From the NCBI GenBank assembly GCA_965247805.1, contig OZ252034.1, positions 3,372,192-3,404,191 on the forward strand: a stretch of DNA of 32,000 nt, in the 5' to 3' direction. This document shows positions 2,019 to 26,283 of the stretch, in pieces. Below the pieces are notes generated by a model. The model was not told where the DNA came from and searched no databases. It saw nothing but the letters and a program-made list of their open reading frames with translations. The DNA is from Pyrinomonadaceae bacterium. GTDB taxonomy: Bacteria; Acidobacteriota; Blastocatellia; Pyrinomonadales; Pyrinomonadaceae. Position numbers and translations under genes: made by a program. Numbering within the stretch: position 1 is the stretch's first letter; every line of letters starts with the position of its first letter.

Positions 2019-3413
2019 ATGTCAATTCGAGAAAACATCGAAAAAACTTTAGATAACGCCGAAAAATTGAACAGCGAATTGAACTCATTTCTGTCAATCG
2101 AGCGCGAATATGCGGCGCAGCGTGCGGACGAAGTGGAAAAAGATTCGGGCGAAAAATCTCTGCGCGGTATGGCGATTGCGCTCAAAGACAACATTTGCAC
2201 AAAGGATTTGCAGACGACTTGCGGCTCGCGGATTCTCAATAATTACAAGGCGCAATACGATGCAACCGCCGCGAAAAAATTAAATGACGCAGGCGCGATT
2301 ATTGTCGGGAAGACGAATATGGACGAATTTGCGATGGGTTCGTCAAACGAATCTTCGGCGTTTGGCAATGTCAAAAATCCGTGGGATTTGGAGCGCGTTC
2401 CGGGCGGAAGTTCGGGCGGTTCTGCCGTCGCGGTTGCGTCGGGCGTGGTTCGTGCAAGTTTGGGTTCGGAAACCGGCGGTTCGGTTCGGCAGCCCGCGTC
2501 TCTGTGCGGTGTCGTCGGACTCAAACCGACTTACGGGCGAATTTCGCGTTTCGGGCTGGTTGCATTTGCTTCGTCGCTCGATAATATCGGGATTTTCGGT
2601 CAAACGTCGAAAGATGTCGCCGACGTTTTGGGCGTGATCGCCGGACGCGACGCGAACGATTCGACGACGGCTGACGTTGCTGTTCCGAATTACCACGAAA
2701 CTTTGAATAATGACATAAAAGGCAAAAAAATCGGTGTTCCGCGTGAATTATTCGGTGAAGGTCTGCAAGAGGAGGTGAGTGAAGCGGTTGAAAAATCTAT
2801 CGAAAATTACCGCTCGCTTGGTGCTGAAATCGTTGATGTCGAATTGCCCTACGCGAAATACGGCATCGCGGTTTATTACATTATTGCAACGGCTGAGGCT
2901 TCGTCAAATCTGGCGCGTTTCGACGGTGTGCGCTACGGTTTTCGGACGGAAGGCGCACACAGTTTGCGCGAAAATTATTTCAAAACCCGTGAAGAAGGGT
3001 TCGGCGCGGAAGTCAAACGCCGCATTATGCTTGGAACTTACGTTTTATCGAGCGGTTATTACGACGCTTATTACTCAAAAGCGCAAAAGGTTCGCGCCCT
3101 CGTCAAACGCGATTATCAAACGGCTTTTGAAAAATGCGATGCGATTCTGACACCGACTTCGCCAACGACCGCCTTTAAAATCGGTGAAAAATCAGACGAT
3201 CCGCTGGCGATGTATTTGAATGACGTTTACACGGTTTCGGCAAACTTGGCGGGCGTTCCGGGCATTTCGATTCCCTGCGGATTATCAGGCGAAGGATTGC
3301 CAATCGGCACACAGCTTGTCGGCAATTTCTGGTCGGAAGGCGTTTTGCTGAATCTCGCTAATATCTACGAAAAAGAATTTCCGCTCGGCGCAAAACCGAA
3401 AGTTTTTGTGTAA
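2019..3413 (+). CDS. gatA: Glutamyl-tRNA(Gln) amidotransferase subunit A
   Basis: 464-aa ORF with the amidase signature [14 protein letters not shown] and the KDNI..TTCGS motif. Confidence 0.95.
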
Positions 3414-3416
3414 TTC

Positions 3417-3537
3417 AAGTCAGAACAGTGAGCGGTAGCGACCTGTTGATCGCGGCTTTTAAAGTATCCGTTAATTGTTTAATTGAGAATACAGATTGAA
3501 AAGATTAACAGGTCGCTACCGCTCGCTGTTCTGACTT
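3417..3537. repeat. Palindromic element family 2, copy A (121 bp, 31-bp arms, core GAGCGGTAGCGAC)
   Basis: AAGTCAGAACAGTGAGCGGTAGCGACCTGTT at 3417-3447 matches the reverse complement of 3507-3537 with one mismatch. It fills the gap between the convergent gatA and GGDEF-EAL genes. Confidence 0.85.
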
Positions 3538-3539
3538 TT

Positions 3540-5762
3540 TCAGTTCGCTAATCTCAAGTATGAAAATTCGCGGTTTTGAGCAATTATCGTCGGATTATTG
3601 TTCGGGATAATGTTTTGCCAGCGTTGGCTGTCGTCCACGATGATCTGCGCTTCTTCAACCGGCACGGGACGCGAGAAAAGATAGCCTTGCCCATTGTCAC
3701 AACCTAAAATTCTTAGTTGGTGAAGCTGATGAATCGTCTCGATGCCTTCGGCGACGACATCCAGATTCAAGGTTTTCGCCAGCGCGATAATCGTGCGGAC
3801 AATCTCGCCGTTTTCGCTGCCGTCTTCCATCGAACTGACGAACGAACGATCAACTTTGAGCGTGTCAATCGGAAAGCGGTGCAGATAACTCAAGGAAGAG
3901 TAACCCGTCCCGAAATCGTCTATCGAAAGTTTGATGCCGAGTGCGCGAATGTTTTTGAGCATCGTAATCGTGTTTTCGGCGTTTTCCATAATTGCGCTTT
4001 CCGTAATTTCCATTTTCAGACACGCCGGATTGACTTGCGTTTCGACGAGAATTTTGCGAATTTGCTCGACTAAATCCGGCTGGGCAAAATGTTTGCCCGA
4101 AAGATTGACGCTCATTATTAAATTTTTATTGAGCGGGGAACGAGCTTGCCATTTGACTAATTGTTCGCAGGTTTTTCGCAAAATCCAGAGTGTCAAAGGC
4201 ACGATCAAACCCGTGTCTTCCGCAACCGGAATAAATTCAATTGGCGCAACAATTCCGCGCTGCGGATGATTCCAACGCATCAACGCTTCAAATCCCATCA
4301 AACTCATCGTTGCCAGATCAATCATCGGCTGGTAATAAACGAGCAGTTCGTCACGTTCGACGGCGTGGCGTAAATCCGTTTCCATTTGCAGCAGATTGAC
4401 GGCGCGAAGGTGCATTGTTTGATCAAAAACAACGTAATCTTTGCTATTTTTCTTTGCCGAATACATTGCAATATCGGCATCACGCAAAATCTCTTCAGCG
4501 TCTTTATAAGTCTGACTGTTAAGCGCGATACCGATGCTGAAATTTGTAAAAACCTGTCTTCCGTTAACCGAAAACGGTGCGGCAACCTTGCGCCTGATTA
4601 AGTCGGCGACCTGCACTGCATCGTCGCTCATCTCGATATTGTTTAAGATAACGGCAAATTCGTCACCGCCGAACCGCGCTACCAAACCGCCTTTCTGCAT
4701 TATTGATGACAGACGCTTGGCAACTTGCAGAATCAGACGGTCGCCCGCCGTATGTCCGAGACTGTCGTTAATTGTTTTGAAGCGGTTGAGGTCCAAAAAT
4801 AATATGGCAAATTTCGTATTCGGTTTTTGCTGCGATGTTTCCAACAAAGATTTGAGTGATTCGATAAAAAAATTGCGATTCGGAAGTCCGGTCAAACTGT
4901 CGTGATAAGCGGCGTGGCGAAAAAGTTCGCGGCTCTCTCTAAGTGCGAGTCCGGTTTTTTCCTGATCGGTGATGTAATGCTGAAGTTCGATGATGTGATT
5001 TTCGGCTTCTTCAGCGCGTTCGCGTTCGGACTGCTCGGCTTTCGCGGCGGTTTCCTTAATGTCGTTCAAATAGTGGCGGTAAGTCGAATAGATTATTGCC
5101 GAAATTGCAAATGTCGCCATCACCAGAAAAGGGTCAACCCGCTGAAAGGATTTAATGACAAGTCCGGCACACGATGCTCCGGCAACATAAAAAATCAACG
5201 TATTGAAACAGTTTTTATACCAGATTTTCCAGAACGATTTACTGTCTTCGGCGCAGATCAGCGAAACGACCAGTGAATTCATTAAAAACTGTGCGACCGC
5301 CATTACGCAGAGCATTTTGACAAAATTCGTCGGTGTTCCGTTAGCAGTTACATCGCCGATAGAATCGAATATATGTCTGAGAATAAATACAGTTACAAAA
5401 GTCGTGACCGCTGAAATCGCACCGTTTAAAAACAATGTCTTTGTACGAAAATGAACACCTTTTCGCTTTAGATTTAACGAATTAAAAATTGATTCGAGAA
5501 CGGCGAGAACAATTCCGACTTCGCCGCCGTAAGTCAGCAGCGCGATAAAAACCAATGTGTCTGAAACCGTTAAATAGAGATTTGTGCGCGGAATCTGAAT
5601 TTGCAGATAAGAACTAAAAAATACCGTAAATATTGTAAATGCGATTAATCCGCTATCAAATTGGCTGAAAGGAATCTGGAATGCGGAGTGTCCGAAAATC
5701 AATAGTCCGACGGCTAAAGTGATCCAGGTTGGGAGTTCGATTGTTTTCGCCTTTTTCGTCAT
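3540..5762 (-). CDS. Membrane-anchored GGDEF-EAL c-di-GMP turnover protein, paralog 1
   Basis: 740-aa ORF. About 8 predicted hydrophobic helices at the N-terminus, then a charged coiled-coil linker, then RFGGDEF, EALMRW and DDFGTGYSSL motifs. Confidence 0.9.
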   Translation of the reverse strand: MTKKAKTIELPTWITLAVGLLIFGHSAFQIPFSQFDSGLIAFTIFTVFFSSYLQIQIPRTNLYLTVSDTLVFIALLTYGGEVGIVLAVLESIFNSLNLKRKGVHFRTKTLFLNGAISAVTTFVTVFILRHIFDSIGDVTANGTPTNFVKMLCVMAVAQFLMNSLVVSLICAEDSKSFWKIWYKNCFNTLIFYVAGASCAGLVIKSFQRVDPFLVMATFAISAIIYSTYRHYLNDIKETAAKAEQSERERAEEAENHIIELQHYITDQEKTGLALRESRELFRHAAYHDSLTGLPNRNFFIESLKSLLETSQQKPNTKFAILFLDLNRFKTINDSLGHTAGDRLILQVAKRLSSIMQKGGLVARFGGDEFAVILNNIEMSDDAVQVADLIRRKVAAPFSVNGRQVFTNFSIGIALNSQTYKDAEEILRDADIAMYSAKKNSKDYVVFDQTMHLRAVNLLQMETDLRHAVERDELLVYYQPMIDLATMSLMGFEALMRWNHPQRGIVAPIEFIPVAEDTGLIVPLTLWILRKTCEQLVKWQARSPLNKNLIMSVNLSGKHFAQPDLVEQIRKILVETQVNPACLKMEITESAIMENAENTITMLKNIRALGIKLSIDDFGTGYSSLSYLHRFPIDTLKVDRSFVSSMEDGSENGEIVRTIIALAKTLNLDVVAEGIETIHQLHQLRILGCDNGQGYLFSRPVPVEEAQIIVDDSQRWQNIIPNNNPTIIAQNREFSYLRLAN
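3645..3929. repeat. Near-identical tract shared with 6162-6446
   Basis: Manual alignment shows a 129-nt perfectly identical block (3711-3839), flanking identical blocks, one 18-nt divergent patch and four further mismatches. The rest of the two genes is clearly diverged. Confidence 0.85.
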
Positions 5763-6044: not shown

Positions 6045-6076
6045 ACCTTCGGAGAATTATTTAGCCAACCGAAGGT
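6045..6076 (-). terminator. Possible hairpin terminator at the stop codon of paralog 2
   Basis: ACCTTCGG (6045-6052) pairs with CCGAAGGT (6069-6076). On the minus strand a T-rich run (TCATTTTCATTTC) follows. Confidence 0.35.
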
Positions 6077-8282
6077 GTGTAAATTCGCGGTTTTGTGCGA
6101 GCGTCGCCGGATTATTGTTCGGAATAACATTTTGCCAGCGCATTTTATCTTCGACAATAAGCTGCGCTTCTTCAACCGGCACGGGACGCGAGAAAAGATA
6201 GCCTTGCCCGTATTCGCAGCCGAGAATTCTTAGTTGGTGAAGCTGATGAATCGTCTCGATGCCTTCGGCGACGACATCCAGATTCAAGGTTTTCGCCAGC
6301 GCGATAATCGTGCGGACAATCTCGCCGTTTTCGCTGCCGTCTTCCATCGAACTGACAAATGAACGGTCAACTTTAAGCGTGTCAATCGGAAAGCGGTGCA
6401 GATAACTCAAGGAAGAGTAACCCGTCCCGAAATCGTCTATCGAAAGCTGTACACCGATTTGTTTGAGACGCTTGAGCATCGAAATCGCCTGTTCAGGATT
6501 GTCCATCACCGCACTTTCCGTAATTTCCAGTTTCAAACATTGCGGCGGCATTTCGGTTTTAATCGTGATTTCCTGAATTCGTTCGACGAGATCGCTGTGA
6601 ACAAAATGTTTGCCCGAAAGATTAACGCTCAGGAATAAAGGCTTTTGTGCCGGATCAAGTCTTTGCAGACGAACGATTTCACGACAAGATTCTTCTAAAA
6701 TCCAATAAGTAATCGCCACGACTAGCCCGGTTTCTTCGGCGACGGGAATAAATTCACTCGGCGGAATCAAACCTCTCTGCGGATGATTCCAGCGAATCAG
6801 AGTTTCAAACCCGTTCAATTCCATTGTGTCGAGCGCGATGATCGGCTGGTAGAATGCACAGAGTTCGCGGCGTTCGATAGCGTAGCGCAAATCGGTTTCG
6901 ATTTGAAGCAGTGTGACGGCGCGAGTGTGCATCGTTTGATTGAAAATCTCGTAGTTTCGCTTGTTGTCCTTAGCGTAATACATCGCAATATCGGCATCGC
7001 GCAGGACTTCTTCGGCTTCGCCATAATTGATGTTGCCAAACGAAATGCCGATGCTCGTATTGATAAAAACTTCCCTGCCGCCGATGTTGAACGGTGAAGA
7101 AAATTTGTAGTTGATGAGTTGCGCGAAACTGACGACATCATCGGTATTTTTGACGTTAGTCAGAATAATCCCAAATTCGTCACCGCCGAAACGTGCCAGT
7201 AAATCTTCGTCCTTAATTAATTCATTCAATCTTTTACCGACGCATTGAATCAGATTATTGCCGATAGAATGTCCGAGACTTTCATTGACGGTCTTGAAGC
7301 GGTTAAGGTCTAAAAACAGCACCGCAAAATTGAACGCGGGATTTTGTTTGTGCTTTTCGAGTTGAAATTTGAGTGTTTCGATAAATGAGTTGCGGTTCGG
7401 CAGTCCGGTCAAATTATCGTGAAAAGCGGCGTGACGAAAACGGTCTTTGCTGACGCGTAAGGCATCGCTGATTTTATTTTGATCGGTAATATGCCGCTGA
7501 AGTTCGACGATGTGATTTTCAGCTTGTTCGGCGCGGTCGCGTTCGGCTTGTTCGGCTTTCGCAGCGGTTTCCCGCATATCGTTAATGTAACGCTTGTAGG
7601 TCATACAGATCAACCCGAAAATTCCGACGACGATGGCGAATAAAAATAAATTGACCTGTGTCAGAGCCTTGACTGCGGCACCCGCAAGAAAGGCGGCGAC
7701 AAAAAACATTAACAGCGCACTTAGTGAATACTCAGCCCAAACACGCAAGACAGTTTTTTCCGATTTAATGGCACTGTAAGCCGTGATTCCAACTGAAGTA
7801 ACGGCAAACTGTAGGCTTGCCATTACAATCAACAGCAATACTAATCGCGTATTATTACCGGTTTCAAGCACGGTATCTACCGAGTTGAACAGATACGCGA
7901 TGACAAACGCCGTCGCGTATGTTGCAGTCGCTGCGACAAAAACATTTGAAAGAATAGTTTTTGTCTTTATTTCAATTGACTGCCGACGGATACTCAGCGA
8001 AGCATAAAGTGACTCTAAAGCCGCTAACAAAACTGCGACTTGTACGCCGTAAACTAATAGTGAAAGAAAAATCAGTGCATCGGAAATTGTGATATGAATC
8101 TCAGTGCGCGGCAATTTGATGCGTAAATACGAACTCAAAAAAATCGTTACAACGGAAAATGCAATCAGCCCGTCATCAATTTTCCCGACCGGAAATCGGT
8201 AAATCGCCCAACCTGACACGGTTAGTCCAATCGGTAAAACAACCGACAAATACAGATTAATATTTCTTTCTTTTTTCTCCAC
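6057..8282 (-). CDS. Membrane-anchored GGDEF-EAL c-di-GMP turnover protein, paralog 2
   Basis: 741-aa ORF with the same architecture as 3540-5762. Motifs are RFGGDEF, ETLIRW (an EAL variant) and DDFGTGYSSL. Confidence 0.9.
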   Translation of the reverse strand: MEKKERNINLYLSVVLPIGLTVSGWAIYRFPVGKIDDGLIAFSVVTIFLSSYLRIKLPRTEIHITISDALIFLSLLVYGVQVAVLLAALESLYASLSIRRQSIEIKTKTILSNVFVAATATYATAFVIAYLFNSVDTVLETGNNTRLVLLLIVMASLQFAVTSVGITAYSAIKSEKTVLRVWAEYSLSALLMFFVAAFLAGAAVKALTQVNLFLFAIVVGIFGLICMTYKRYINDMRETAAKAEQAERDRAEQAENHIVELQRHITDQNKISDALRVSKDRFRHAAFHDNLTGLPNRNSFIETLKFQLEKHKQNPAFNFAVLFLDLNRFKTVNESLGHSIGNNLIQCVGKRLNELIKDEDLLARFGGDEFGIILTNVKNTDDVVSFAQLINYKFSSPFNIGGREVFINTSIGISFGNINYGEAEEVLRDADIAMYYAKDNKRNYEIFNQTMHTRAVTLLQIETDLRYAIERRELCAFYQPIIALDTMELNGFETLIRWNHPQRGLIPPSEFIPVAEETGLVVAITYWILEESCREIVRLQRLDPAQKPLFLSVNLSGKHFVHSDLVERIQEITIKTEMPPQCLKLEITESAVMDNPEQAISMLKRLKQIGVQLSIDDFGTGYSSLSYLHRFPIDTLKVDRSFVSSMEDGSENGEIVRTIIALAKTLNLDVVAEGIETIHQLHQLRILGCEYGQGYLFSRPVPVEEAQLIVEDKMRWQNVIPNNNPATLAQNREFTHLRLAK
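6162..6446. repeat. Near-identical tract shared with 3645-3929
   Basis: See 3645-3929. It encodes the identical peptide LSIDDFGTGYSSLSYLHRFPIDTLKVDRSFVSSMEDGSENGEIVRTIIALAKTLNLDVVAEGIETIHQLHQLRILGC in both genes. Confidence 0.85.
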
Positions 8283-8556: not shown

Positions 8557-10686
8557 TTACTTCGTGATTCCGACTTGGCTCAAAGCGTAAGCGTATTCAA
8601 ATGCAACTTCTTTCAAACGGTCGTATCTGCCGCTTGAACCGCCGTGTCCCGCGCCCATATTTGTTTTGAGCAGGACGATGTTGTCGTCAGTTTTCATTTC
8701 CCGGACTTTCGCGGCGAATTTCGCGCCTTCCCAATACGGAACCTGCGAATCGTTCAGCGAAACTTCGACGAGCATATTCGGGTAATTCTGCGCTTTGACA
8801 TTATCGTAAGGCGAGTATTGAACCATATAATCCCACGCCGCTTTTTCATTCGGATTGCCCCATTCGATCCATTCTTCGGTCGTTAAAGGCAAACTCGCAT
8901 CGAGCATCGTGTTCATCACGTCAACGAACGGAACCTGCGCGATTGCCGCGTGAAAAGTTTCCGGCGACATATTAACGACTCCGCCCATTAGCAGTCCGCC
9001 CGCGCTGCCGCCTTGAATAACCATTCGGTCAGCCGACGTGTATTTATTCGCTTCGAGCCATTTTGCCGAATCAATAAAATCGTGAAAGGTGTTTAATTTC
9101 TTAAACATTCGACCTTCCTGCCGCCATTTTTCGCCGAGTTCCGAACCGCCGCGAATATGCGCGACGGCATATATCATTCCGCGATCCAAAAGACTAAGCC
9201 GCGCCGTTGAGAAACTCGGTGTCATCGAAATTCCGTAACTTCCGTAAGCGTAAAGTAGCATTGGCACAGAACCGTCGAGCTTCGTGCCTTTTTTCCAGAC
9301 AATCGAGATCGGAACTTTCACGCCGTCACGCGCAACCGCCCATAAACGCTTGGTTTCATACTGCGTTTTGTCGTAGCCTGACGGAATTTCCTGCTGTTTG
9401 ATGAGTTCGCTTTTGCGCGTTTTGAAATCGTATTCGTAGGTCGAATTCGGCGTAATCATCGAAGCGTAATTGTATCGAATAATCGGCGTGTCATATTCAG
9501 GATTTGTTGACACGCCCATTGTGTAAACGTCTTCGGGCGTAGCAATCCGCGCCGCCGCCCGCTTCGTTTTCAAATCCATTACCTTGAGATATTCCAAACC
9601 GTTTTCGCGTTCGGAAATGACTGCGTAATCCTTAAAGAAATTAACGTCGTCAATTTTGACCGCCGGATTATGCGCCACAAAATCCTTCCAATTATTTTCG
9701 CCCGGATCATTGAGCGGAGCGCGGACGATCTTAAAGTTTTCCGCGTCTTTGTTGGTGATGATGTAAAATTCACCGTTGTTGAAATCGGCGGAATATTCGT
9801 GACCTTCGCGGCGCGGCGAAACGATTTTCCATTCGCCAAGCGGATTGTCAGCCGGCAAATAACGATACTCGCGCGAAGTTTTGGCTTGCGAACCTAAAAG
9901 CAGCATCTTTTTGTCGCGCGAACGTCCGATACCGATATTGAAAAGCAAGTCCTTTTCTTCAAACAACAAATCGTTTTTGTCCGTGCCGACCGTGTGCCGC
10001 CAAAATTTATCGGAACGCTTTGACACGGCATCTTCCTGCACGACAAACAGATATTTGCCGTCGTTTGACCATTCGGTCGAAGTCGCACGCTCGATTTTAT
10101 CAGGCAAAATTTTGCCGGTTCGTAAATCTTTAATTTGCAGAGTGTATTGACGATAGCCGGTCGTGTCAGTCGAAAACGCAAGCAGATTGCCGTCGTCCGA
10201 AACGTCGAAATCGCCGATGGCAAAATATTTAAAGCCCGTCGCCATCGCATTTTGATCGAGGAGAACTTCCGCGTCTTTGCCGTCCTTGGTTTTGCTCCGC
10301 AGATAAGTCGGGTATTGTTTCCCTTCCTCGGTGCGCGTAAAATACCAGTAATTGCCGAGTTTATAAGGAACGCTCAAATCGGTTTGCTTGATGCGACCGA
10401 TCATTTCCTTGTAAAGATTGTCGGCGAACGGCTGATGCGGCTTCATAAAACTTTCGGTATAAGCATTTTCAGCGTTCAAATAATCCAGAATTTCAGGATT
10501 TTTCTTCTCGTTTCGATCACGCAGCCACGCGTAATTATCGGTAATTTCGTAGCCGTGAATCTTTAAAACTTTTGGGTCTTTTTTTGCAACTGGTGGTTTC
10601 ATATCGGTTTGGGCAACAATTACTGTATTGCCGATGCATATAATTATGCCGACAAAAACGGCAAACACAAAAAGCACACGTTTCAT
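8557..10686 (-). CDS. ptrB: Oligopeptidase B (S9A prolyl oligopeptidase family), secreted or periplasmic
   Basis: 709-aa ORF with a signal peptide. YAWLRD motif, catalytic GGSAGGLL, and a C-terminal GHGG.SGR motif. It is collinear with E. coli PtrB as recalled. Confidence 0.85.
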   Translation of the reverse strand: MKRVLFVFAVFVGIIICIGNTVIVAQTDMKPPVAKKDPKVLKIHGYEITDNYAWLRDRNEKKNPEILDYLNAENAYTESFMKPHQPFADNLYKEMIGRIKQTDLSVPYKLGNYWYFTRTEEGKQYPTYLRSKTKDGKDAEVLLDQNAMATGFKYFAIGDFDVSDDGNLLAFSTDTTGYRQYTLQIKDLRTGKILPDKIERATSTEWSNDGKYLFVVQEDAVSKRSDKFWRHTVGTDKNDLLFEEKDLLFNIGIGRSRDKKMLLLGSQAKTSREYRYLPADNPLGEWKIVSPRREGHEYSADFNNGEFYIITNKDAENFKIVRAPLNDPGENNWKDFVAHNPAVKIDDVNFFKDYAVISERENGLEYLKVMDLKTKRAAARIATPEDVYTMGVSTNPEYDTPIIRYNYASMITPNSTYEYDFKTRKSELIKQQEIPSGYDKTQYETKRLWAVARDGVKVPISIVWKKGTKLDGSVPMLLYAYGSYGISMTPSFSTARLSLLDRGMIYAVAHIRGGSELGEKWRQEGRMFKKLNTFHDFIDSAKWLEANKYTSADRMVIQGGSAGGLLMGGVVNMSPETFHAAIAQVPFVDVMNTMLDASLPLTTEEWIEWGNPNEKAAWDYMVQYSPYDNVKAQNYPNMLVEVSLNDSQVPYWEGAKFAAKVREMKTDDNIVLLKTNMGAGHGGSSGRYDRLKEVAFEYAYALSQVGITK

Positions 10687-14804: not shown

Positions 14805-14838
14805 AAAAAGGCAGAAGATTAATTTCTCCTGCCTTTTT
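14805..14838. terminator. Bidirectional terminator between convergent genes
   Basis: AAAAA-GGCAGAAG-loop-CTCCTGCC-TTTTT: an 8-bp stem with one mismatch, flanked by an A-run and a T-run. Confidence 0.55.
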
Positions 14839-15466
14839 ATTCATCAATTTTTTCTGAAATAATTTGAAATAATCTCTCGCAATGCGGCGCGGCTTCACGA
14901 ACTTTTTGCGGATTGATAATTTCTAAAAGTTTCGCTCCGTGTTTAGTTTTATGATATTCACCTTTCTGAGTGTTTTTTGTAGCATTTGCTAAATGATTTT
15001 CAACATCTGATTTTTTGATCTTTTCGACATTAGCATTTTTTGTAAGCGCATTACGGTTAAAATTCTGCCCGTAAAACTCAGCTAATTTGTCTTTGTCGGC
15101 AAAAAACCACGACTCCATCAAATGCACCATTAAATGACATTGATTTTCTTCTGCTTCTTGCAGATGCCATAGCGGATTTTGCTTTTGCAGAAAAGATTTC
15201 GGCGTTTCGTCTTCATCAATCGGCGCGTCGGAATCAAGCAGAAACAAAACGAAAGTGTTTTGATATTCCCTTTTGCCGTCAAGAAACTTCTTAAAAGTTT
15301 CAAATTTCGAGCCATAAGTTATCGGGCGAAGCGTCATATTTTTGCTTTTGGCTTTATCAACCAACTCACGAAAAAAACTATTGAAACCTTGCCGAAGCGT
15401 GATGTCAGTGTTTTTGCCTTTGTGTTTGGTGTCGCCTTCGATGTAGATTCTGATTTCTTTCACCAT
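14837..15466 (-). CDS. DUF4276/RloB-like small protein with TOPRIM-like E...DxD motifs (putative nuclease partner)
   Basis: ORF of 209 aa from the ATG at 15466 (MVKEIRIYIEGD..); the tracked ORF extends to 15496. YIEGD, and later FLLDSDAP, resemble the TOPRIM Glu and DxD. ATGGTGA overlaps the upstream ATPase stop. The family name is from memory. Confidence 0.7.
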   Translation of the reverse strand: MVKEIRIYIEGDTKHKGKNTDITLRQGFNSFFRELVDKAKSKNMTLRPITYGSKFETFKKFLDGKREYQNTFVLFLLDSDAPIDEDETPKSFLQKQNPLWHLQEAEENQCHLMVHLMESWFFADKDKLAEFYGQNFNRNALTKNANVEKIKKSDVENHLANATKNTQKGEYHKTKHGAKLLEIINPQKVREAAPHCERLFQIISEKIDE

Positions 15467-16668
15467 CGCGTCCCGCCGATTTCTCCTTTCAGCCACAAAT
15501 CACCGAGTGAATATTCATCAAGCCACGCTTTCAATCTATCTTTTTCCAGACGCTTGAAGTGCGTTCCGTCCTCGTCTTTTTCGCAAACCAAAACGGCTTC
15601 GGGAATTTCGGAAAAAGCGGAAACGAGAATGTCCGAATGTGTCGTGACAATAAGCTGCGTTCGCTGCGAAGCCTCGATCATCAATTCGGCAATCGTCGGC
15701 AGAATATCAGGATGCAAACCCGTTTCCGGTTCTTCGATACAAATCAACGGTGGCGGCGCGGGATGACAAAGAATCGCCAGCAAACACAGATAACGCAAAG
15801 TCCCGTCCGAAAGACGTTTTGCAGAAATCGCCGTCTTGAGATTTTTTTCAACAAGATAAAATTGTAAATAATCACCTACATTTCTAACTTCATAATCATT
15901 TACATTTGGATAAAATCTTCTTAAATTTTCTATGATTTTGCTCTTTATTTCACCTTTTTTCTTTAGGTTATTCAAAATATGTGAAAGATTATTTCCATCT
16001 TCTTCCAGAAATTCATCCAAAATGTCGGGAGATTTAGGAGTTCTCAAATCAGAAGAACGGTTTGTATTTAAGTCTGAATAAATTTTAAAATCAGCTAAAA
16101 TTGTTCCCAAAATAGAAACTTCATAGAAATTAGCAAAATCCCTAACTTGCGAGAAAACTGACTCTCCTAAAGGTAATTTTCCAGATAAAATGTTTCGATA
16201 ATCTTTTTGTGGAGACACCTCATACAAACCATTAAGTGAGCTAAAATAATCTATTACATTTTCTGAGTTTTCAAATCTTTTATGTTCCTCTTGAAGGGAT
16301 TCTCTGATTACCGATACTTTGAAGTTGATTTCAGCAAATTCAAGTTTATAACGAAGTGATGGAGGGGTTTGTGAATATTCACTTCTAACAATTCCATTAA
16401 TTATTAATTCAATTGCTGTAAAATCCTCGCTTTCCTTTCCTTTCCAAATCCATTCGCTAATTCCGCCGTTTTTACTAATAAAAGTTGCCAAGCCTTTATC
16501 TTGTGGAAGCGAACGCAAAAGTTTTATGACATCAATTAAATTCGATTTGCCCGAAGCGTTTTGACCGATGATTATATTAAGAGGCTCAAGCTCGATTTCT
16601 TCGCCTTTGTCGCCGAAGGAAAGAATGTTTCGCAATTTGATTTTTTCGATTAAGCGTTTGCCTTCCAT
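15460..16668 (-). CDS. ABC/AAA_21-type ATPase (OLD/AriA/AbiLi-like)
   Basis: 402-aa ORF. Walker A GQNASGKSN, ABC signature LSDGT, Walker B LICIEEPETGLHP, H-loop TTHSD. A long insert of about 215 aa separates Walker A from the signature motif. Confidence 0.85.
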   Translation of the reverse strand: MEGKRLIEKIKLRNILSFGDKGEEIELEPLNIIIGQNASGKSNLIDVIKLLRSLPQDKGLATFISKNGGISEWIWKGKESEDFTAIELIINGIVRSEYSQTPPSLRYKLEFAEINFKVSVIRESLQEEHKRFENSENVIDYFSSLNGLYEVSPQKDYRNILSGKLPLGESVFSQVRDFANFYEVSILGTILADFKIYSDLNTNRSSDLRTPKSPDILDEFLEEDGNNLSHILNNLKKKGEIKSKIIENLRRFYPNVNDYEVRNVGDYLQFYLVEKNLKTAISAKRLSDGTLRYLCLLAILCHPAPPPLICIEEPETGLHPDILPTIAELMIEASQRTQLIVTTHSDILVSAFSEIPEAVLVCEKDEDGTHFKRLEKDRLKAWLDEYSLGDLWLKGEIGGTRW

Positions 16669-16935: not shown

Positions 16936-17013
16936 AAAAGTAAAAAAGCAAAAGTTAAAGAATCGCTTCCTTACTTTTGCCTTTTTACTTTTACCTTTTG
17001 CCTTTTTACTTTT
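16936..17013. repeat. 20/21-nt tandem repeat plus inverted copy at the 3' end of gltA (probable terminator hairpin)
   Basis: ACTTTTGCCTTTTTACTTTT (16973-16992) is repeated at 16993-17013. An inverted copy, AAAAGTAAAAAAGCAAAAGT, lies at 16936-16955. The gltA stop (17012-17014) sits in the second unit. Confidence 0.6.
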
Positions 17014-18151
17014 ACCTTTCTTCAATCGGAACATATTTCAAATCGCGTGCGCCGATGTATTCGGCACGCGGACGAATGAGTTTGTTGTTGCCGTATTGCT
17101 CTAAAATATGTCCCGTCCAACCGGAAATGCGCGAAACGGCGAAGATCGGCGTGTATTGGTCGAGCGGAATATCCATCAGGTAATATGCCGAAGCCGAATA
17201 GAAATCGACGTTCGGGTGCATTCCTTTTTTCTCCAACATCGCCTTTTCGATTTTTTGCGACATATTGAACCATTTCATTTCGCCGCGTTTTTCGCCCAAC
17301 TGTTTTGAGAATTTGCGAAGCCACGTCGCGCGCGGGTCTTCGGTTTTATAGACGGCGTGACCGATGCCCATAATTTTGCGTTTTTCTTCGAGAGCTTTGT
17401 CGAGCCACGAATCAATATTTTCTTCGCTGCCGATTTCCTTGAGCATTTTCATCACATTCGTATTCGCGCCGCCGTGCAGCGGTCCGGCGAGTGCCGCGAT
17501 TCCGCCCGTGACCGCGCCGTAGATGTCGGCAAGCGTTCCGGCAATCACGCGCGTCGTGAACGTCGAAGCGTTCAGTTCGTGGTCGGCGTGCAGAATTAAC
17601 GCGATGTCGAAAATTTTAGCTTCGTCGGCTTCCGGTTTTTCGCCCGTGAACATATAGAGGAAATTTTCAGCGATGCTCAAACTGTCGTCCGGCGCGATTG
17701 GTTCTTTGCCGGTGCGAATGCGTTCCCACGCGGCGACGACTGTGCCAATCTGTGCAGTTAATTTAACGGCAGTTTTGACGGCAGTTTCGCGGTCGGTTCC
17801 GTGTCCGTTTTTGTCGTAAAATCCAAGTGCGGAAACGCTCGTGCGGAGAACGTCCATCGGATTCGCGTCCTTCGGAAAGGTTTTCATCATCTCGACGAGT
17901 TCCGCCGGAATGTCGCTGTTCGCCTGAAATTGCGCTTTCAAATCTTCGAGTTCCGCTTTTTTCGGCAGACGACCGTTCCAAAGTAAAAATATGACTTCTT
18001 CAAACGTCGAATTCTCGGCTAAATCGTGAATATCATAGCCTTGATAAATTAAAATTCCCTGTTCGCCGTTGACATCGCCGATTGCGCTCTGCGCGGCAAC
18101 TACGCCTCGTAATCCGGCGGTCGCGGCGGTTGATTCTGTTGCTGTACTCAT
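17012..18151 (-). CDS. gltA: Citrate synthase (about 380-aa type; a 2-methylcitrate synthase is not excluded)
   Basis: 379-aa ORF with GPLHGGAN and GIGHAVYKTEDPR motifs typical of citrate synthase. Confidence 0.88.
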   Translation of the reverse strand: MSTATESTAATAGLRGVVAAQSAIGDVNGEQGILIYQGYDIHDLAENSTFEEVIFLLWNGRLPKKAELEDLKAQFQANSDIPAELVEMMKTFPKDANPMDVLRTSVSALGFYDKNGHGTDRETAVKTAVKLTAQIGTVVAAWERIRTGKEPIAPDDSLSIAENFLYMFTGEKPEADEAKIFDIALILHADHELNASTFTTRVIAGTLADIYGAVTGGIAALAGPLHGGANTNVMKMLKEIGSEENIDSWLDKALEEKRKIMGIGHAVYKTEDPRATWLRKFSKQLGEKRGEMKWFNMSQKIEKAMLEKKGMHPNVDFYSASAYYLMDIPLDQYTPIFAVSRISGWTGHILEQYGNNKLIRPRAEYIGARDLKYVPIEER

Positions 18152-18244: not shown

Positions 18245-19117
18245 TCAAGCTATAACCTTAATTTTTTGACCGACTTCGGCTTGCAGAATATCTGCCGCCG
18301 AATCTTTAAAAGCGACGATTTCTAAAAACTCCGCGCTTCCGAAAATCATAAAGATTTCGGACTTTTCAGCTTCGGCAAAATAATTTTGCAGTTTTTCGAT
18401 TTTCTTTTCGCCGATCTCCAACTCGAATTTTGCGGGTAAATATTCAGCTTTCAAATTTGTGATGAGATTGCCGAAACGATCAATGTGAATAATTTGCGCC
18501 TCGATTTCGGTTTCGGAGAATTTGCGCGGGTTTGCTTCTTCAAATCTTTTGTAATCAGTTATTTCCCTGCCGAATTCGTTTGGTTTTACACCGTTTGAAA
18601 GATGTGCGGCGACGGGTGCGAAAACGTCCCGTCCGTGAAAAGTCGCGGATACTTTGCCGGCGAAAAATTGTTTGTTCGTCAATTCATAAACATTACAGGC
18701 AGAAGTCCGCGCGTGAGCAGGGGCGTTTTTTGATTCGCCGTCATTTATGCCCTTGCTCACGCGCGGACTTCTGCCTTCGTTGAAGACAAAACTCAGCAGA
18801 CCGTTGTCCGGCGCGATGAAAAAATATTCGTCCGTTTCCACCAAAATCGCGCGTCTGTTTGAGCCGACTCCGGGATCAACGACGGCGACGTAAATTGTTT
18901 GCAGCGGGAAATTTCGATAACAGGCGCGGAGCGTAAAACTCGCGGAGTTTATATTTTGCGGCTCGATTTCGTGCGTAATATCAACAATCTGCGCGGTCGG
19001 ATTAATTGACAGAATCGCGCCTTTCATCGCCGCGACAAAATAATCCTTCGTTCCAAAGTCAGTCAGTAAAGCAATTATTTGTGCTGATTTCGGTTCTTCC
19101 CTTAATTTATTGGTCAT
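18245..19117 (-). CDS. SAM hydrolase / SAM-dependent halogenase-like protein (DUF62 family) carrying an in-frame repeat insertion
   Basis: The ORF is taken from ATG 19117 (MTNKLRE..); the tracked ORF extends to a TTG at 19222. LLTDFGTKDYFVAAMKG, DPGVGS and TFHGRDVFAPVAA motifs are present. Confidence 0.8.
   Translation of the reverse strand: MTNKLREEPKSAQIIALLTDFGTKDYFVAAMKGAILSINPTAQIVDITHEIEPQNINSASFTLRACYRNFPLQTIYVAVVDPGVGSNRRAILVETDEYFFIAPDNGLLSFVFNEGRSPRVSKGINDGESKNAPAHARTSACNVYELTNKQFFAGKVSATFHGRDVFAPVAAHLSNGVKPNEFGREITDYKRFEEANPRKFSETEIEAQIIHIDRFGNLITNLKAEYLPAKFELEIGEKKIEKLQNYFAEAEKSEIFMIFGSAEFLEIVAFKDSAADILQAEVGQKIKVIA
18698..18775. repeat. Palindromic element family 1, copy 2 (78 bp), inside a CDS
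   Basis: GGCAGAAGTCCGCGCGTGAGCAGGGGC (18698-) pairs with GCCCTTGCTCACGCGCGGACTTCTGCC (-18775). It begins on a codon boundary and spans exactly 26 codons, encoding GRSPRVSKGINDGESKNAPAHARTSA. Confidence 0.9.
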
Positions 19118-20279: not shown

Positions 20280-20545
20280 TTGACCTCCATATCAAAAAAC
20301 AAGAAATGTTTTGTCCGCTATGATTTATACACTATAACTTAAGAAATTACAAGAAGAATTTTAAAATTAATTTCCAAACGTCCGGCTGTTTAAAAGAAGT
20401 CTCTGATTTGATATTCTTAACTGACAAAATTGCAGTATTTAGCATCTGTTTGTGGTGGAGAGTTAAAATTTTTCCGGTTGTCTTCGGGCAACTTCAAAAT
20501 TAGAAGTAATTTCCCTTTCAAAAGATGCCAGAGCGATTTTATAAA

Positions 20546-20616
20546 TCAGAACAAGAAGCGGTAGCGACTTGTGTAACCTACGCGATTTCACCCGTCACTA
20601 TCTTTCCGGGTTCTGA
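20546..20616. repeat. Degenerate copy of palindromic element family 2 (copy C)
   Basis: The left end TCAGAACAAGAAGCGGTAGCGACTTGTG resembles copy A. The right end ..GTCACTATCTTTCCGGGTTCTGA is only partly complementary. Confidence 0.35.
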
Positions 20617-20643
20617 ATTATTACAATTTTTATCGAGGAATCT

Positions 20644-23617: not shown

Positions 23618-24079
23618 ATGGAAGAAAAACCAATTGAAGTTTTATCGTCTCACGAAAGCGGAGTCAGAAGTATAATTGCCTCAGCGAAAGGGCAAACTTA
23701 TCAGGCATTACATTCTCTCGAAGAAGCACAAAATATTTCGGATGGAGTTGTAATTTTCGAAGGTGACTACGGCGGAACAATTTACTTAACTTGTCCGGCT
23801 GACAAAGTAAAATGCTCGGTAGAAACATTGAAACAATTGCTTGCAGACATTGATGATTGTATTTGGAATAATCCTCACGGCGCAAAAGTCCTTTACGAAC
23901 GTCATCAAATAGGTTCAGGTATTGCAGGCGGAATGGGCGGCGGCATTGTAACGGACGGTGTTTGGATTCACAAAGAACTTACCGAAAAAGATTTGCACGA
24001 AAAAATTGAAGCTGTTTTAAAAGGACAAAATTCAAAATTGCAAATGCCTGAGAAGACATCAGAGTCAATGAATTCCTAA
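23618..24079 (+). CDS. Hypothetical acidic cytoplasmic protein
   Basis: ORF from the ATG at 23618 (MEEKPIEV..). The tracked TTG start at 23561 lies inside the upstream hairpin. No recognisable motif, and GC is lower than in the flanks. Confidence 0.45.
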   Translation: MEEKPIEVLSSHESGVRSIIASAKGQTYQALHSLEEAQNISDGVVIFEGDYGGTIYLTCPADKVKCSVETLKQLLADIDDCIWNNPHGAKVLYERHQIGSGIAGGMGGGIVTDGVWIHKELTEKDLHEKIEAVLKGQNSKLQMPEKTSESMNS

Positions 24080-24116
24080 ACGGCAAAACCAAAATTGCCG
24101 ACAATAACGAATGGGA

Positions 24117-24186
24117 TCAATTTTGCGGTGAATAAATTATGACACAAAACAAAACTGTTTCAGTTGAAGGAATTCGCGCTAATTTG
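24117..24186 (+). repeat. Left direct repeat: duplicated 5' end of the aminotransferase gene
   Basis: TTATGACACAAAACAAAACTGTTTCAGTTGAAGGAATTCGCGCTAATTT differs from TTATGTCACAAAACAAAACTCTTTCAGTTGAAGAAATTCGCGCTAATTT at 24922-24970 at 3 of about 49 positions. Weaker similarity extends upstream. Confidence 0.85.
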
Positions 24187-24225
24187 TTGACTTTTGGTAT
24201 GACCGATGGTATTACTATTTTATGA
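24139..24225 (+). pseudogene. 28-codon relic of the aminotransferase N-terminus, now a leader ORF coupled to the antitoxin
   Basis: Encodes MTQNKTVSVEGIRANLLTFGMTDGITIL*. The first 15 aa match MSQNKTLSVEEIRAN of the intact gene at 12 of 15 positions. Its TGA overlaps the antitoxin ATG (ATGA at 24222-24225). Confidence 0.6.
24187..24215 (+). promoter_or_regulatory. Candidate sigma-70 promoter for the toxin-antitoxin cassette
   Basis: TTGACT (24187-24192), a 17-nt spacer, then TATTAC (24210-24215). This would leave a very short leader before the ATG at 24222. Based on consensus similarity only. Confidence 0.3.
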
Positions 24226-24464
24226 GTGTTGCAAAAGTAACTATTTCTATCGAATCGGGCTTGCTTAATAAGGTTGATTATCTTGTCAAAGAGCGTGTTT
24301 TTTCTAATCGCAGCCAAGCAATTCAGTCGGCGGTGGCGGAAAAAATTTCAAAATTGAACAGCAATCGTCTGGCGCGTGAGTGTGCGAAATTAGACAAGGC
24401 GGAAGAACAATCGCTGGCTGATTTGGGTTTGGCAAATGAGGCGGACGAATGGCTCGAATATTAA
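24222..24464 (+). CDS. Ribbon-helix-helix (CopG-like) antitoxin
   Basis: 80-aa ORF. The N-terminal KVTISIESGLLNKVDYLV..RSQAIQSAV pattern fits RHH. It overlaps the downstream toxin gene by 16 nt. Confidence 0.8.
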   Translation: MSVAKVTISIESGLLNKVDYLVKERVFSNRSQAIQSAVAEKISKLNSNRLARECAKLDKAEEQSLADLGLANEADEWLEY

Positions 24465-24787
24465 GAGGCGACATAGTTTGGGCAAGCCTCGATCCGACAA
24501 TCGGACACGAACAATCAGGTTCGCGTCCGGTTCTTGTTTTGAGTCAGGATGTTTTCAACGAGCGTTCGGGAACGGTCATCGCGGTCGTTCTGACCAGCCA
24601 AAAACCGAACGCGGGTTTTCCGTTGACATTTGAACTTTCCGATCCGAAATTGCCGAAACAATCTTGGGTAAAAATCAGTCAAATCCGCGTGTTGTCAACC
24701 GAGCGTTTGGGCAAAAAAATCGGTAAAGCATCAAACGAAGAATTGGAAGCCGTGATCGAAGGGTTGAATGAAATCATCGGCGGATAA
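24449..24787 (+). CDS. mazF: MazF/PemK family endoribonuclease toxin
   Basis: 112-aa ORF. RGDIVWASLDPTIGHEQSGSRPVLVLS is a typical PemK/MazF N-terminus. Confidence 0.9.
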   Translation: MARILRGDIVWASLDPTIGHEQSGSRPVLVLSQDVFNERSGTVIAVVLTSQKPNAGFPLTFELSDPKLPKQSWVKISQIRVLSTERLGKKIGKASNEELEAVIEGLNEIIGG

Positions 24788-24825
24788 AATTTGGATTAAA
24801 GAATTTCGCGTTGGTATTAAAAATT

Positions 24826-24903
24826 AGTATATTGAGCGGTAGCGAACATCGTTGCACTCAAAATTGATTGAAGTGTGACAGACTCGCTACCGCTCACTAT
24901 ACT
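24826..24903. repeat. Palindromic element family 2, copy B (78 bp)
   Basis: AGTATATTGAGCGGTAGCGA at the left end pairs with TCGCTACCGCTCACTATACT at the right end. It shares the GAGCGGTAGCGA core with copy A and sits 6 nt from the right direct repeat. Confidence 0.8.
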
Positions 24904-24909
24904 GATTTG

Positions 24910-24970
24910 TCAATTAAGATTTTATGTCACAAAACAAAACTCTTTCAGTTGAAGAAATTCGCGCTAATTT
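24910..24970 (+). repeat. Right direct repeat (native 5' end of the aminotransferase gene)
   Basis: See 24117-24186. Confidence 0.85.
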
Positions 24971-26153
24971 TCCGGCTTTGAATCGCGTTCATAAAGGTTT
25001 TTCGGTGGCTTATTTTGATGGTCCGGGCGGGACACAGGTTCCGCGTCAGGTTGTCGAGGCGATGACGGATTATCTTTACAATCATAATGCCAATTCGCAT
25101 TGGGCGTTTCCGACGAGTGTTGAAACGGACGCGATAATTGCGGATTCGCGCCTCGCGTTGGCGGATTATTTGAATGCTTCGGCGGATGAAATCGCGTTCG
25201 GGCAGAATATGACTTCGCTGACGTTTCATCTGGCGCGTGCGCTTGGCAGAGATTTTAACGCGGGCGACGAGATTATTGTCACCGAACTCGATCATCACGC
25301 GAATGTTGATACATGGCGTTCGCTTGAAAAAGAGCGCGGCGTGAAGTTTCGAGTTGTGCCGATGGATATTGAGAGCGGAACTTTGGAGTTTTCAGAACTC
25401 GAAAATCTTTTGAATGCGAAGGCGAAACTCTTGGCAATCGGCGCGGCTTCCAATGCGATTGGGACGATTTCGGATGTCAAAAAGGCTTGTGCGCTGGCGA
25501 AGGAAAATAACACTTTGAGCTTTGTTGACGCAGTTCATTATGCGGCGCACGAACTCGTTGACGTGCAGGATTTCGGCTGTGATTTTTTGGCGTGTTCGGC
25601 GTATAAATTTTACGGTCCGCACATCGGCGTTCTTTACGGACGGCGCGAACTGCTCGAAAAAATTGATTCCCCGAAACTCAAACCGTCGCCGAACAACGCG
25701 CCGGATCGAGTTGAAACCGGCACGCAAAGCCACGAATCAATCGCCGGGGCAGGCGCGTGTATCAATTTTCTCGCTTCACTTTCGACTGGCGAAACACGGC
25801 GCGAAAAACTGCAAAACACCTTCGCCGAAATTCATTCGCGCAAAATGGATTTGTTCAAAAATTTGTGGGAAGGTTTATCGGCGATTGACGGAGTAACGCT
25901 TTATGGACAAAACGCGGAAGCGCGGCGCACACCGACAATCGCTTTTACCGTCAAAAATGTAAATTCACAAACCGTTTCGGAAAAACTTGCGACACGCGGA
26001 ATTTTCACTTCAAACGGCGATTTTTACGCGACGACCGTGGTTGAAAAACTCGGTTTAGCCAACGACGGTTTAGTTCGCGCCGGCTGTGCCTGTTACACGA
26101 CGATTGAAGAAGTTGAAAGATTAGTGGAAGGCGTGCGAAGCATCGCAAAGTAA
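24924..26153 (+). CDS. Class-V aminotransferase-fold PLP enzyme (cysteine desulfurase-like)
   Basis: 409-aa ORF. The HHAN motif and the SAYKFYGP PLP-lysine context are typical of the Csd/SufS-like family. Confidence 0.8.
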   Translation: MSQNKTLSVEEIRANFPALNRVHKGFSVAYFDGPGGTQVPRQVVEAMTDYLYNHNANSHWAFPTSVETDAIIADSRLALADYLNASADEIAFGQNMTSLTFHLARALGRDFNAGDEIIVTELDHHANVDTWRSLEKERGVKFRVVPMDIESGTLEFSELENLLNAKAKLLAIGAASNAIGTISDVKKACALAKENNTLSFVDAVHYAAHELVDVQDFGCDFLACSAYKFYGPHIGVLYGRRELLEKIDSPKLKPSPNNAPDRVETGTQSHESIAGAGACINFLASLSTGETRREKLQNTFAEIHSRKMDLFKNLWEGLSAIDGVTLYGQNAEARRTPTIAFTVKNVNSQTVSEKLATRGIFTSNGDFYATTVVEKLGLANDGLVRAGCACYTTIEEVERLVEGVRSIAK

Positions 26154-26280
26154 CGCCGTCCGTCCCGGCGGCTGTCGGGTAGGCATCTTGCCTACCCGTT
26201 TTTCTTAGAGTTTTTTGCACGTTGCGGAGAGGTGCGGGCGGGACGCGCCGCACGACTGCCGCCGGGACGGACGGCGTTAC
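26150..26280. repeat. 131-bp GC-rich element with perfect 23-bp terminal inverted repeats
   Basis: GTAACGCCGTCCGTCCCGGCGGC (26150-26172) is the exact reverse complement of 26258-26280. It spans almost the entire gap between the convergent genes and includes the aminotransferase stop codon. Confidence 0.85.
26176..26203 (+). terminator. Intrinsic terminator of the aminotransferase gene
   Basis: CGGGTAGGCA-TCT-TGCCTACCCG followed by TTTTT. Confidence 0.8.
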
Positions 26281-26283
26281 GTT

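Follow-up and report, generated by a model that had tools for sequence, protein, structure and literature searches.

A duplicated aminotransferase gene start brackets a mazEF toxin–antitoxin module at a site of recurrent cassette insertion in Pyrinomonadaceae

Organization of the aminotransferase locus

A 32,000-nt stretch of the genome of a Pyrinomonadaceae bacterium (assembly GCA_965247805.1, contig OZ252034.1, positions 3,372,192 to 3,404,191 of the forward strand; hereafter the window, numbered from its first letter) carries a mazEF-type toxin–antitoxin (TA) module just upstream of a class-V aminotransferase gene, and the start of the aminotransferase gene occurs on both sides of the module. 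The aminotransferase gene, here called AT5, is intact (24924..26153, plus strand). Its product is cysteine desulfurase-like (Aminotran_5, 2.1e-72; TIGR01976, 437 bits against a cut-off of 352), and its best match among species-representative genomes, also from Pyrinomonadaceae, shows 87% protein identity. The 47-nt string that begins at the AT5 ATG occurs exactly twice in the window, at 24139-24185 and 24924-24970, with three mismatches between the copies. None of 100 dinucleotide-preserving shuffles gave a match to this string; the gene-start duplication of about 47 nt described in an initial annotation of this DNA is therefore real. BLAST and Smith-Waterman alignment extended the repeat to 49 nt (24137-24185 and 24922-24970, 94% identity). 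The initial annotation had also counted an upstream stretch (24117-24138 against about 24905-24921), but beyond position -2 the copies agree at only about 11 of 19 positions, which is not meaningful in AT-rich DNA; the left end of the repeat accordingly lies practically at the start codon rather than some 20 nt upstream. The possibility that the repeat is a common regulatory motif is excluded, since it is simply the AT5 start and occurs twice in the window.

The two copies have different settings. The right copy (24922..24970, plus strand) is attached to the AT5 gene, whose intact open reading frame (ORF) begins there, so that the interrupted 5' end has been restored by the inserted DNA. The left copy (24137..24185, plus strand) is an orphan that comprises positions -2 to +47 of the gene and lies in the ancestral context described below. 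A relic ORF of 28 codons can be read from the orphan start (24139..24225, plus strand), and its TGA overlaps the mazE ATG; this ORF is probably non-functional. In a related metagenome contig, L161, the orphan copy has ATA in place of the ATG, and GAAGAA has become GAATAA, an in-frame stop. Because the ORF is not conserved in L161, it is better regarded as a scar than as a leader peptide.

The duplication brackets a self-contained mazEF module and one dispersed palindromic repeat. A putative sigma70-like promoter, TTGACT-N17-TATTAC (24187..24215, plus strand), ends 6 nt before the mazE ATG; the GGTAT...GGTAT direct repeat within it may be an operator. A strict consensus promoter scan missed it, as the last base of the -10 box is C. 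All mazEF copies compared retain it, and homology between the cassettes extends leftward only as far as this site; the mazE transcript would be leaderless or nearly so. The antitoxin gene mazE (24222..24464, plus strand) encodes an 80-aa protein with a ribbon-helix-helix (RHH) N-terminus (RHH_8, E 2.8e-5, 24.6 bits, just below the Pfam cut-off of 25.4; NikR-type RHH matches in NCBIfam), and it is 88% identical at the amino acid level to the copy in L001, the nearest species-representative genome. The toxin gene mazF (24449..24787, plus strand) overlaps mazE by 16 nt and encodes a 112-aa MazF/PemK endoribonuclease, which matches PF02452 over its full length (E 5.4e-31, 107.5 bits, cut-off 23.1) and NCBIfam MazF at E 1.7e-16, under the equivalog cut-off. 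More than 8000 close MazF homologues, 80-95% identical, are found across Acidobacteriota. The candidate promoter, RHH antitoxin, MazF toxin and palindrome attributed to the insert by the initial annotation are thus all present between the copies.

Comparison of ten mazEF loci in differing contexts showed that their homology begins at the -35 box TTGACT and ends with the mazF stop codon, the flanks being unrelated. The initial annotation proposed a search for the mazEF-plus-palindrome unit at other sites; mazEF copies elsewhere share only this promoter-to-stop stretch. To judge from its sequence, the module is an ordinary self-contained type II TA system with a predicted promoter of its own, an RHH antitoxin and a MazF RNase. 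It resembles known mazEF/pemIK systems in that a toxin of the PemK/MazF fold follows a small overlapping RHH-type antitoxin gene under the module's own promoter, and likewise in its high mobility across many genomic contexts. However, E. coli MazE is an AbrB-type antitoxin, unlike the RHH-type antitoxin of the window, and the transcript in the window is apparently leaderless. Directly after the mazF stop, AAGAATTTCGCG (24799-24810) resembles AT5 nt 30-41 at 11 of 12 positions and was considered as a third remnant of the AT5 start; it could be what is left of a short duplication made by mazEF itself upon insertion into the orphan copy. Its score of 19 against a median of 18 for shuffled sequences led us to set it aside.

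The palindrome between mazF and AT5 (24821..24908) belongs to a dispersed family of elements, here family 2, that resemble repetitive extragenic palindromes (REP) or miniature inverted-repeat transposable elements (MITEs). Its arms are 25 nt long (24821-24845 and 24884-24908), its RNA fold is predicted at -52 kcal/mol (z -7.4), and 13 nt, rather than the 6 nt first annotated, separate it from the right repeat. A second element (3417..3537) has no cassette nearby, and a third, partial one (20543..20640) lies upstream of M16 peptidase genes. Copies away from cassettes also occur in L002, L039 and further loci of other genomes. An orthologous copy is present in L161 (4233-4326) and one of the matching subfamily in L007 (about 9144-9240). 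The element is not found in L006, and the mazEF of L001 has an unrelated palindrome instead. In the window and L161 its place is on the right of mazEF; in L007, which has no mazEF, it is on the left of a two-gene unit encoding an HNH endonuclease. Because of these cassette-free copies, its absence from L006 and its shifting position, the family-2 element is considered an independent REP/MITE-like repeat. Like such elements, it has conserved inverted termini of about 25-35 nt, a variable loop and intergenic placement, and several copies occur per 32 kb as well as in related genomes; it differs in that no Rfam family fits, the Rfam search of the window having returned no family for any of its sequence, this palindrome included.

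The right arm of the palindrome contains a promoter-like sequence, GTGACA-N17-TATACT (24875..24903, plus strand), that faces AT5 and lies 20 nt upstream of its ATG. With 10 of 12 matches, it is the top-scoring site of the promoter scan in the region. This site is a candidate new AT5 promoter and may now contribute to transcription of the gene; AT5 is probably transcribed at present either by read-through or from this site. Two further types of palindrome were observed in the window. Family 1, with GGCAGAAACCCGCGCGTGAGCAAGGG arms, occupies two intergenic sites (34-108 and 18697-18776), and a GC-rich palindrome with 31-nt arms (26147-26283) is located where AT5 and the DUF5916 gene that follows it converge.

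Empty site and ancestral gene order

Relatives that have an empty site establish the direction of the change. In the metagenome contig L081, whose AT5 is 86% identical, an M16 peptidase gene is followed by a gene for a 66-aa zinc-ribbon protein (ZnR), by AT5 and then, on the opposite strand, by a DUF5916 outer-membrane-type gene; these flanks are those of the window. The ZnR stop codon lies 3 nt before the AT5 ATG, and the repeat sequence is present in a single copy. The same ZnR–AT5 junction, likewise with a single copy, was found in L004 and L082. The empty site predicted by the initial annotation therefore exists and has one copy of the repeat, but the upstream neighbour is ZnR and not the hypothetical gene that had been expected. 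These three loci also rule out that all relatives share the duplicated arrangement.

A remnant of ZnR is preserved in the window. The last 25 codons and the stop of the ancestral 66-aa gene lie at 24058..24135 (plus strand), as identified by tblastn with residues 42-66 of the L004 protein (64% identity, E 7.6e-9), and the window is collinear with L081 1884-2005 (82%) across the end of ZnR and the start of AT5. Because the ZnR remnant adjoins it and L081 is collinear through it, the left copy represents the start that AT5 originally had, still in its native surroundings. The comparison shows that the ancestral order was M16 peptidase, ZnR, AT5, and that the stretch 24186-24923 was added to it, with the right copy behind as a substitute gene start.

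The place of the 5' part of ZnR is occupied by a lineage-specific hypothetical gene (23618..24079, plus strand, 153 aa from its ATG) that has no match in Pfam, NCBIfam or PADLOC and is absent from all relatives examined. The corresponding slot holds an unrelated 149-aa gene in L161 and intact ZnR in L081; the hypothetical gene has thus replaced the 5' part of ZnR. Furthermore, the gene directly upstream of AT5 differs in nearly every relative and may be ZnR, a HEAT-like, GNAT-like or dihydroorotase-like gene, or one of several hypothetical genes. This variety of neighbours marks the AT5 start as a breakpoint of synteny and a hotspot for insertion. The slot is empty in L081, L004 and L082, holds mazEF in the window and L001, mazEF with the HNH unit in L161, the HNH unit in L006, L007 and L176, and other genes in L003, L008 and L011.

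A second cassette and the age of the duplication

Two metagenome contigs of the Joint Genome Institute, L161 and L162, were reached through MazF homologues and share the junction of the window. In the M16 genes and AT5, L161 shares 88-92% identity with the window, and its positions 3564-4325 are collinear at 90% with window 24137-24908, which covers the orphan, mazEF and the end of the palindrome. The junction GCGCTAATTT|GTTGACTTTTGG, where the orphan meets GTTGACT, has the same sequence in the window and in both contigs. L161, however, has an extra unit of two genes between the palindrome and AT5; they encode an 80-aa protein and a 147-aa HNH endonuclease (PF01844, E 3e-12; PtuB-like in PADLOC). 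A trace of this unit remains in the window, where the 15-nt GTCAATTAAGATTTT (24909..24923, plus strand), between the palindrome and the AT5 ATG, is a remnant of the left flank of the HNH cassette. It is homologous to the left flank of the unit in L161, L162 and L007, and in L162 the homology extends to window position 24922. Most simply, the window would have arisen when an array like that of L161 lost its HNH unit through a deletion between two ATTT microhomologies. The interval is therefore not the product of a single insertion of about 720 bp, as initially annotated, but a remodelled array that, as L161 indicates, once held the HNH cassette too.

Synonymous divergence (dS) between the window and L001 is 0.92 for mazE, 0.51 for mazF, 0.74 for AT5 and 1.27 for the outer-membrane protein gene, and from these values the cassette family is as old as these species. 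Against this divergence the repeat appeared too conserved, as though maintained by gene conversion or selection; L161 resolved the discrepancy by placing the duplication at about the split between the window and L161. The window and L161 together have four repeat copies, which differ from each other at 3-6 of 49 sites; left and right copies do not form separate clusters, and all four have a GC(T/C)AATTT tail that the other orthologues lack. Because the four copies are similar and share this tail, the duplication is placed in the lineage that led to both the window and L161, close to where they separated. The copies have drifted neutrally since then. The orphans nevertheless lie in two different native AT5 upstream contexts, of the zinc-ribbon type in the window and with a 5' untranslated region (UTR) like that of L001 and L003 in L161.

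The same gene start has been used more than once. In L006, whose AT5 is 80% identical, the HNH unit alone is flanked by its own duplication (L006 209-284 and 1047-1134). Homology between these copies comprises the ATGACC start and nt 22-88 at 90%, with a 12-nt indel between the copies; the junction is at AT5 nt 88, giving an 88-nt duplication, and the relic ORF ends 32 nt before the antitoxin gene. This duplication is independent of that in the window and L161. In L007 the HNH unit follows a family-2 palindrome and a decayed AT5 fragment, nt 54-76 (score 31, null maximum 25). The junction accordingly falls at AT5 nt 47 in the window and L161, at nt 88 in L006 and at about nt 78 in L007, and the repeat starts at -2/-4 relative to the ATG in the window and L161 and at about -1 in L006. 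In L176 the HNH unit abuts AT5. In L001, mazEF lies directly upstream of AT5 in an intergenic position, before the native 5' UTR common to L003, with no duplication and with a different palindrome. A neighbour-joining tree of AT5, in which neither the window and L001 nor L006 and L007 are sisters, is star-like and cannot order the events.

Similar duplications at other loci

An unbiased self-comparison of 1.7 Mb of fetched loci and cassette contexts revealed three further duplications of this type. In L083, copies of 142 nt (2264-2404 and 3541-3682, 89% identity) span -24 to +117 of a metalloenzyme/sulfatase-like gene and flank a 309-aa gene that has terminators of its own, with a YefM/YoeB-like pair immediately upstream. 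In L170, a complete Pyrinomonadaceae chromosome, 44-nt copies (2675-2718 and 3381-3424, 93% identity) of the 5' end of a minus-strand gene (MTTKEILLEQFTAAYDENG...) flank another mazEF, which sits in a restriction-modification/TA island. Mismatches between the L170 copies are concentrated in the first 15 nt (7 of 15, against 4 of the next 44; Fisher p 0.003). In L043, 50-nt copies (3923-3972 and 5439-5488) of the last 13 nt of a 5S rRNA gene, confirmed by Rfam, and its terminator flank two TA pairs. Across the events the repeat measures 44, 49, 50, about 88 and 142 nt, so that there is no characteristic length, and by eye the duplicated targets at AT5, L083, L170 and L043 have no core motif in common. 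A flanking repeat in L165/L167 (24-31 nt, E 0.026) was too weak to count. The remaining direct repeats in the scan were repeats internal to proteins, tandem paralogues, REP-like elements and a CRISPR array. This CRISPR-like array (L016:1528-2332, repeat TCAATCCGCTTTAGACGCGAAGTTCTCCTCAAT) lies about 8 kb upstream of AT5. Literature searches on TA cassettes between long direct repeats returned nothing directly relevant.

Recombinases and integron-type cassettes

No integrase or transposase was found in a Pfam scan of the window ORFs of at least 100 aa, and for these ORFs the initial annotation is upheld on this point. No integrase was found within the 32-kb window or any fetched flank, and the neighbours of the locus in the window are housekeeping genes. 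The insert holds just mazE, mazF and the palindrome, with no element-encoded integrase. By eye there are no convincing terminal inverted repeats at its ends, and these ends differ between mazEF copies.

TA modules are typical cargo of chromosomal integrons, and attC-like sequences were sought around all mazEF and HNH copies. They were found only in L171-L174, L176 and L008, with a marginal candidate downstream of the L165 mazEF. L174 (287-4874) contains an integron-type array of seven attC-like repeats of about 115 nt (GCCCAAC...GTTGGGC), spaced 550-1000 nt apart, whose cassettes include the HNH two-gene unit and a PIN TA pair; there is no integrase within the fetched stretch. The same type of attC stands on both sides of the HNH unit in L171-173 (L171:2594-3500). 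Two sites lie in the slot between the M16 peptidase gene and AT5 itself: in L176 (1191-1310) an attC follows a 273-aa gene, and in L008 (9730-9999) an attC is split by a palindromic MITE of about 150 nt, with its GTT core 11 nt before the AT5 ATG. Integron-type cassettes have thus also been deposited at this slot in some relatives. At the AT5 locus of the window, L161, L006 and L007, however, neither an attC nor a remnant of one was detected beside mazEF or the HNH unit by BLAST or by Smith-Waterman alignment against a shuffle null. Integron recombination is not known to duplicate its target. For these two reasons we do not ascribe the duplication to an integron integrase, which may nonetheless contribute to the variability of the slot.

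Origin of the duplication

An orphan in its native context, a right copy preceded by foreign DNA, a variable other boundary, repeats of 44-142 nt at gene ends elsewhere, and the lack of a recombinase, terminal inverted repeats or attC are all accounted for by homology-anchored recombination. With moderate confidence, we regard the structure as the scar of a cassette insertion of this kind at a hotspot, the 5' end of AT5. Of the two origins put forward initially, insertion with an unusually long target duplication and a recombination event, the latter is the better, and insertion into the 5' end of the gene is supported. Incoming DNA from a related strain with one or more cassettes upstream of its own AT5 would have been anchored by homologous pairing within AT5, and an illegitimate joint would have linked its non-homologous end to the interior of the resident gene (nt 47 in the window, nt 88 in L006). 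The process may have been homology-facilitated illegitimate recombination (HFIR) or Campbell-type integration of a circularised gene-start fragment, which would yield an equal product. The resident start would thereby be displaced upstream as the orphan, with the cassette and a working start supplied by the incoming DNA. The arrangement in L001 is the kind that a donor would have.

The position of the repeat start fits such an exchange. In two independent events at AT5 the start of the repeat is no more than about 5 nt from the ATG, which is where homology between strains begins because the upstream neighbours differ. A donor and recipient model predicts a repeat that starts at this limit of homology, whereas a random staggered cut does not. 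The repeat–cassette–gene structure could later spread by ordinary homologous recombination with the orphan as its left arm, and such spread would explain why orphans are found in two native upstream contexts, those of the window and L161. The insert could also be excised by recombination of one repeat with the other, an outcome that would be counter-selected for TA cargo.

Sequential displacement of the HFIR type has been proposed for effector–immunity arrays of the type VI secretion system and for orphans of Rhs and contact-dependent inhibition loci (PMC5361080). As at AT5, a conserved segment serves as an anchor, new modules arrive beside it and displace older material, different modules occupy the slot in different strains, and orphan fragments persist as direct repeats; orphan AT5 fragments flank the inserts in the window, L161, L006 and L007. 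In those arrays, however, variable 3' ends are displaced downstream, whereas the AT5 locus mirrors this, with a duplicated 5' end and cassettes upstream, and its TA-type cargo is functionally unrelated to the anchor gene. The mechanism is inferred both there and at AT5.

Several points weigh against homology-anchored insertion. No donor arrangement with identical flanks, in which the illegitimate joint could be checked for microhomology, was found. The junction is identical in the window and L161 despite their different upstream DNA, which also fits repeated site-specific insertion. L008 and L176 have attC cassettes in the same slot, and at other loci the HNH module is itself an integron cassette. 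Natural competence and HFIR would, in addition, have to operate in Pyrinomonadaceae, and the cassette that arrived with the duplication may have been mazEF, the HNH unit or the whole block.

The most serious alternative, though an unlikely one, is a true long target-site duplication, in which a staggered break of 44-142 nt captured a free cassette and was filled in. Such a break could stem from a trans-acting transposase of some kind or from nicks repaired by end joining. The variable repeats of 44-142 nt around small inserts at several unrelated loci and the likeness of the copies speak for it, and it also predicts the native upstream context of the orphan. Transposons with comparable repeats exist: the IS1549/IS1634 group generates long, variable direct repeats of tens to hundreds of bp and has inverted-repeat ends and a transposase. 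The window resembles this group in its variable flanking repeats but has neither inverted-repeat ends nor a transposase. Moreover, the cassettes lack terminal inverted repeats and conserved ends, since mazEF copies share only the promoter-to-stop stretch, and the start of the repeat so near the ATG in two independent events would have to be a coincidence. The non-uniform mismatches between the L170 copies and the 12-nt indel between the orphan and attached copies in L006 also argue against a target duplication.

Somewhat less credit is given to site-specific integration by a recombinase encoded elsewhere in the genome, with an element that carries a replacement gene start. The enzyme might be an integron integrase that uses a secondary site, or a tyrosine integrase whose attB lies at the 5' end of the gene, as at dusA. 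This explanation accommodates the identical orphan|mazEF junction in the window and L161 and the repeated use of the same gene, and the integron link offers a possible source of activity, as the HNH module is a bona fide cassette in attC arrays (L174, L171-173) and attC cassettes occupy the slot in L008 and L176. Islands with dusA-specific integrases show that targeting of a 5' end with restoration of the gene exists, as they insert in the 5' end of a protein gene and restore its start (PMC4482086). They share with the AT5 locus a conserved housekeeping-type target, the supply of a new 5' end and flanking direct repeats, but they are kilobases long, encode their own tyrosine integrase and use a fixed attB core, whereas the AT5 inserts measure 0.6-1.5 kb, carry no integrase and have varying junctions. 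These junctions differ between the cassettes (nt 47 against nt 88), without a core motif visible by eye at AT5, L083, L170 or L043. Integron cassettes, including clusters of attC sites lacking integron integrases (CALIN), resemble the locus in the placement of the HNH module between attC-like repeats of about 115 nt and in the attC-bearing cassettes of the slot. They differ in that the window mazEF and the HNH unit at AT5 have no attC beside them, the window has no intI or attI, and integrons are not known to duplicate their target.

A bolder possibility, to which we give similarly little weight, is that Blastocatellia or Pyrinomonadaceae possess a dedicated cassette-insertion pathway that would place small self-promoted modules into gene ends, duplicate 44-142 nt and regenerate the gene. 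The modules would be TA pairs, HNH pairs and single genes, with gene starts such as that of AT5 as specific landing pads. Such a pathway might be linked to chromosomal integrons, as the same modules also circulate as attC cassettes.

Two further explanations are very improbable. As the initial annotation suggested, the family-2 palindrome might have mobilised the unit; it would then have belonged to that unit as a MITE-like or attC-like end, and it does abut cassettes in the window, L161 and L007. However, members of the same family stand at cassette-free sites (3417-3537, 20543, L002 and L039), the element is absent from L006 and replaced by an unrelated palindrome in L001, it changes from the right of mazEF to the left of the HNH unit in L007, and it lacks the RYYYAAC...GTTRRRY ends of attC. 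Equally, the left copy might be a functional element kept by selection, such as a leader peptide, a translational coupler or a regulatory duplicate. In its favour are the overlap of the relic TGA with the mazE ATG and a repeat that looked too conserved given the divergence from L001 (dS 0.5-0.9). The lost start codon and in-frame TAA of the L161 orphan, and the L006 relic ORF that ends well before the antitoxin gene, argue otherwise, and the conservation is explained by the youth of the duplication relative to the L001 split. An assembly artefact that joined strain variants can be practically discounted, even though most of the relatives compared are metagenome assemblies, given that the copies differ at three sites, that the junction must exist in reads and is also present in two independent assemblies (L161 and L162), and that analogous structures occur in L006 and L083.

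Other features of the window

Away from the AT5 locus, an AAA_21 ATPase gene and a DUF4276 gene (14837-16668, minus strand) match the PADLOC candidate defence system HEC-01 (HEC-01A, E 3.5e-145; HEC-01B, E 1.5e-63). Two tandem paralogous GGDEF-EAL genes of 740 and 741 aa (3540-5762 and 6057-8282, minus strand) show stretches that are 71-88% identical at the nucleotide level, offset throughout by 2517 nt. Short tandem 14-nt repeats of the CTTTTGCCTTTTGT type occur at two distant sites, 1583-1648 and 16967-17018.

Biological implications

The interest of the locus lies in recurrent cassette turnover that duplicates the gene start at AT5 and at similar loci in Blastocatellia; it does not represent a new kind of element. 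In a soil phylum that has received little study, empty sites, shared junctions and independent recurrences of the event document how small TA and nuclease cassettes come and go at the 5' end of a housekeeping-type gene that is left intact. TA modules would be typical survivors between long direct repeats, and a possible reason is that the toxin would kill cells in which such excision takes place. The slot between the M16 peptidase gene and AT5, which also takes attC-type cassettes in some relatives, provides a concrete and testable locus for the study of cassette turnover. More broadly, these observations suggest homology-anchored illegitimate recombination as a general route of gene gain in Acidobacteriota.

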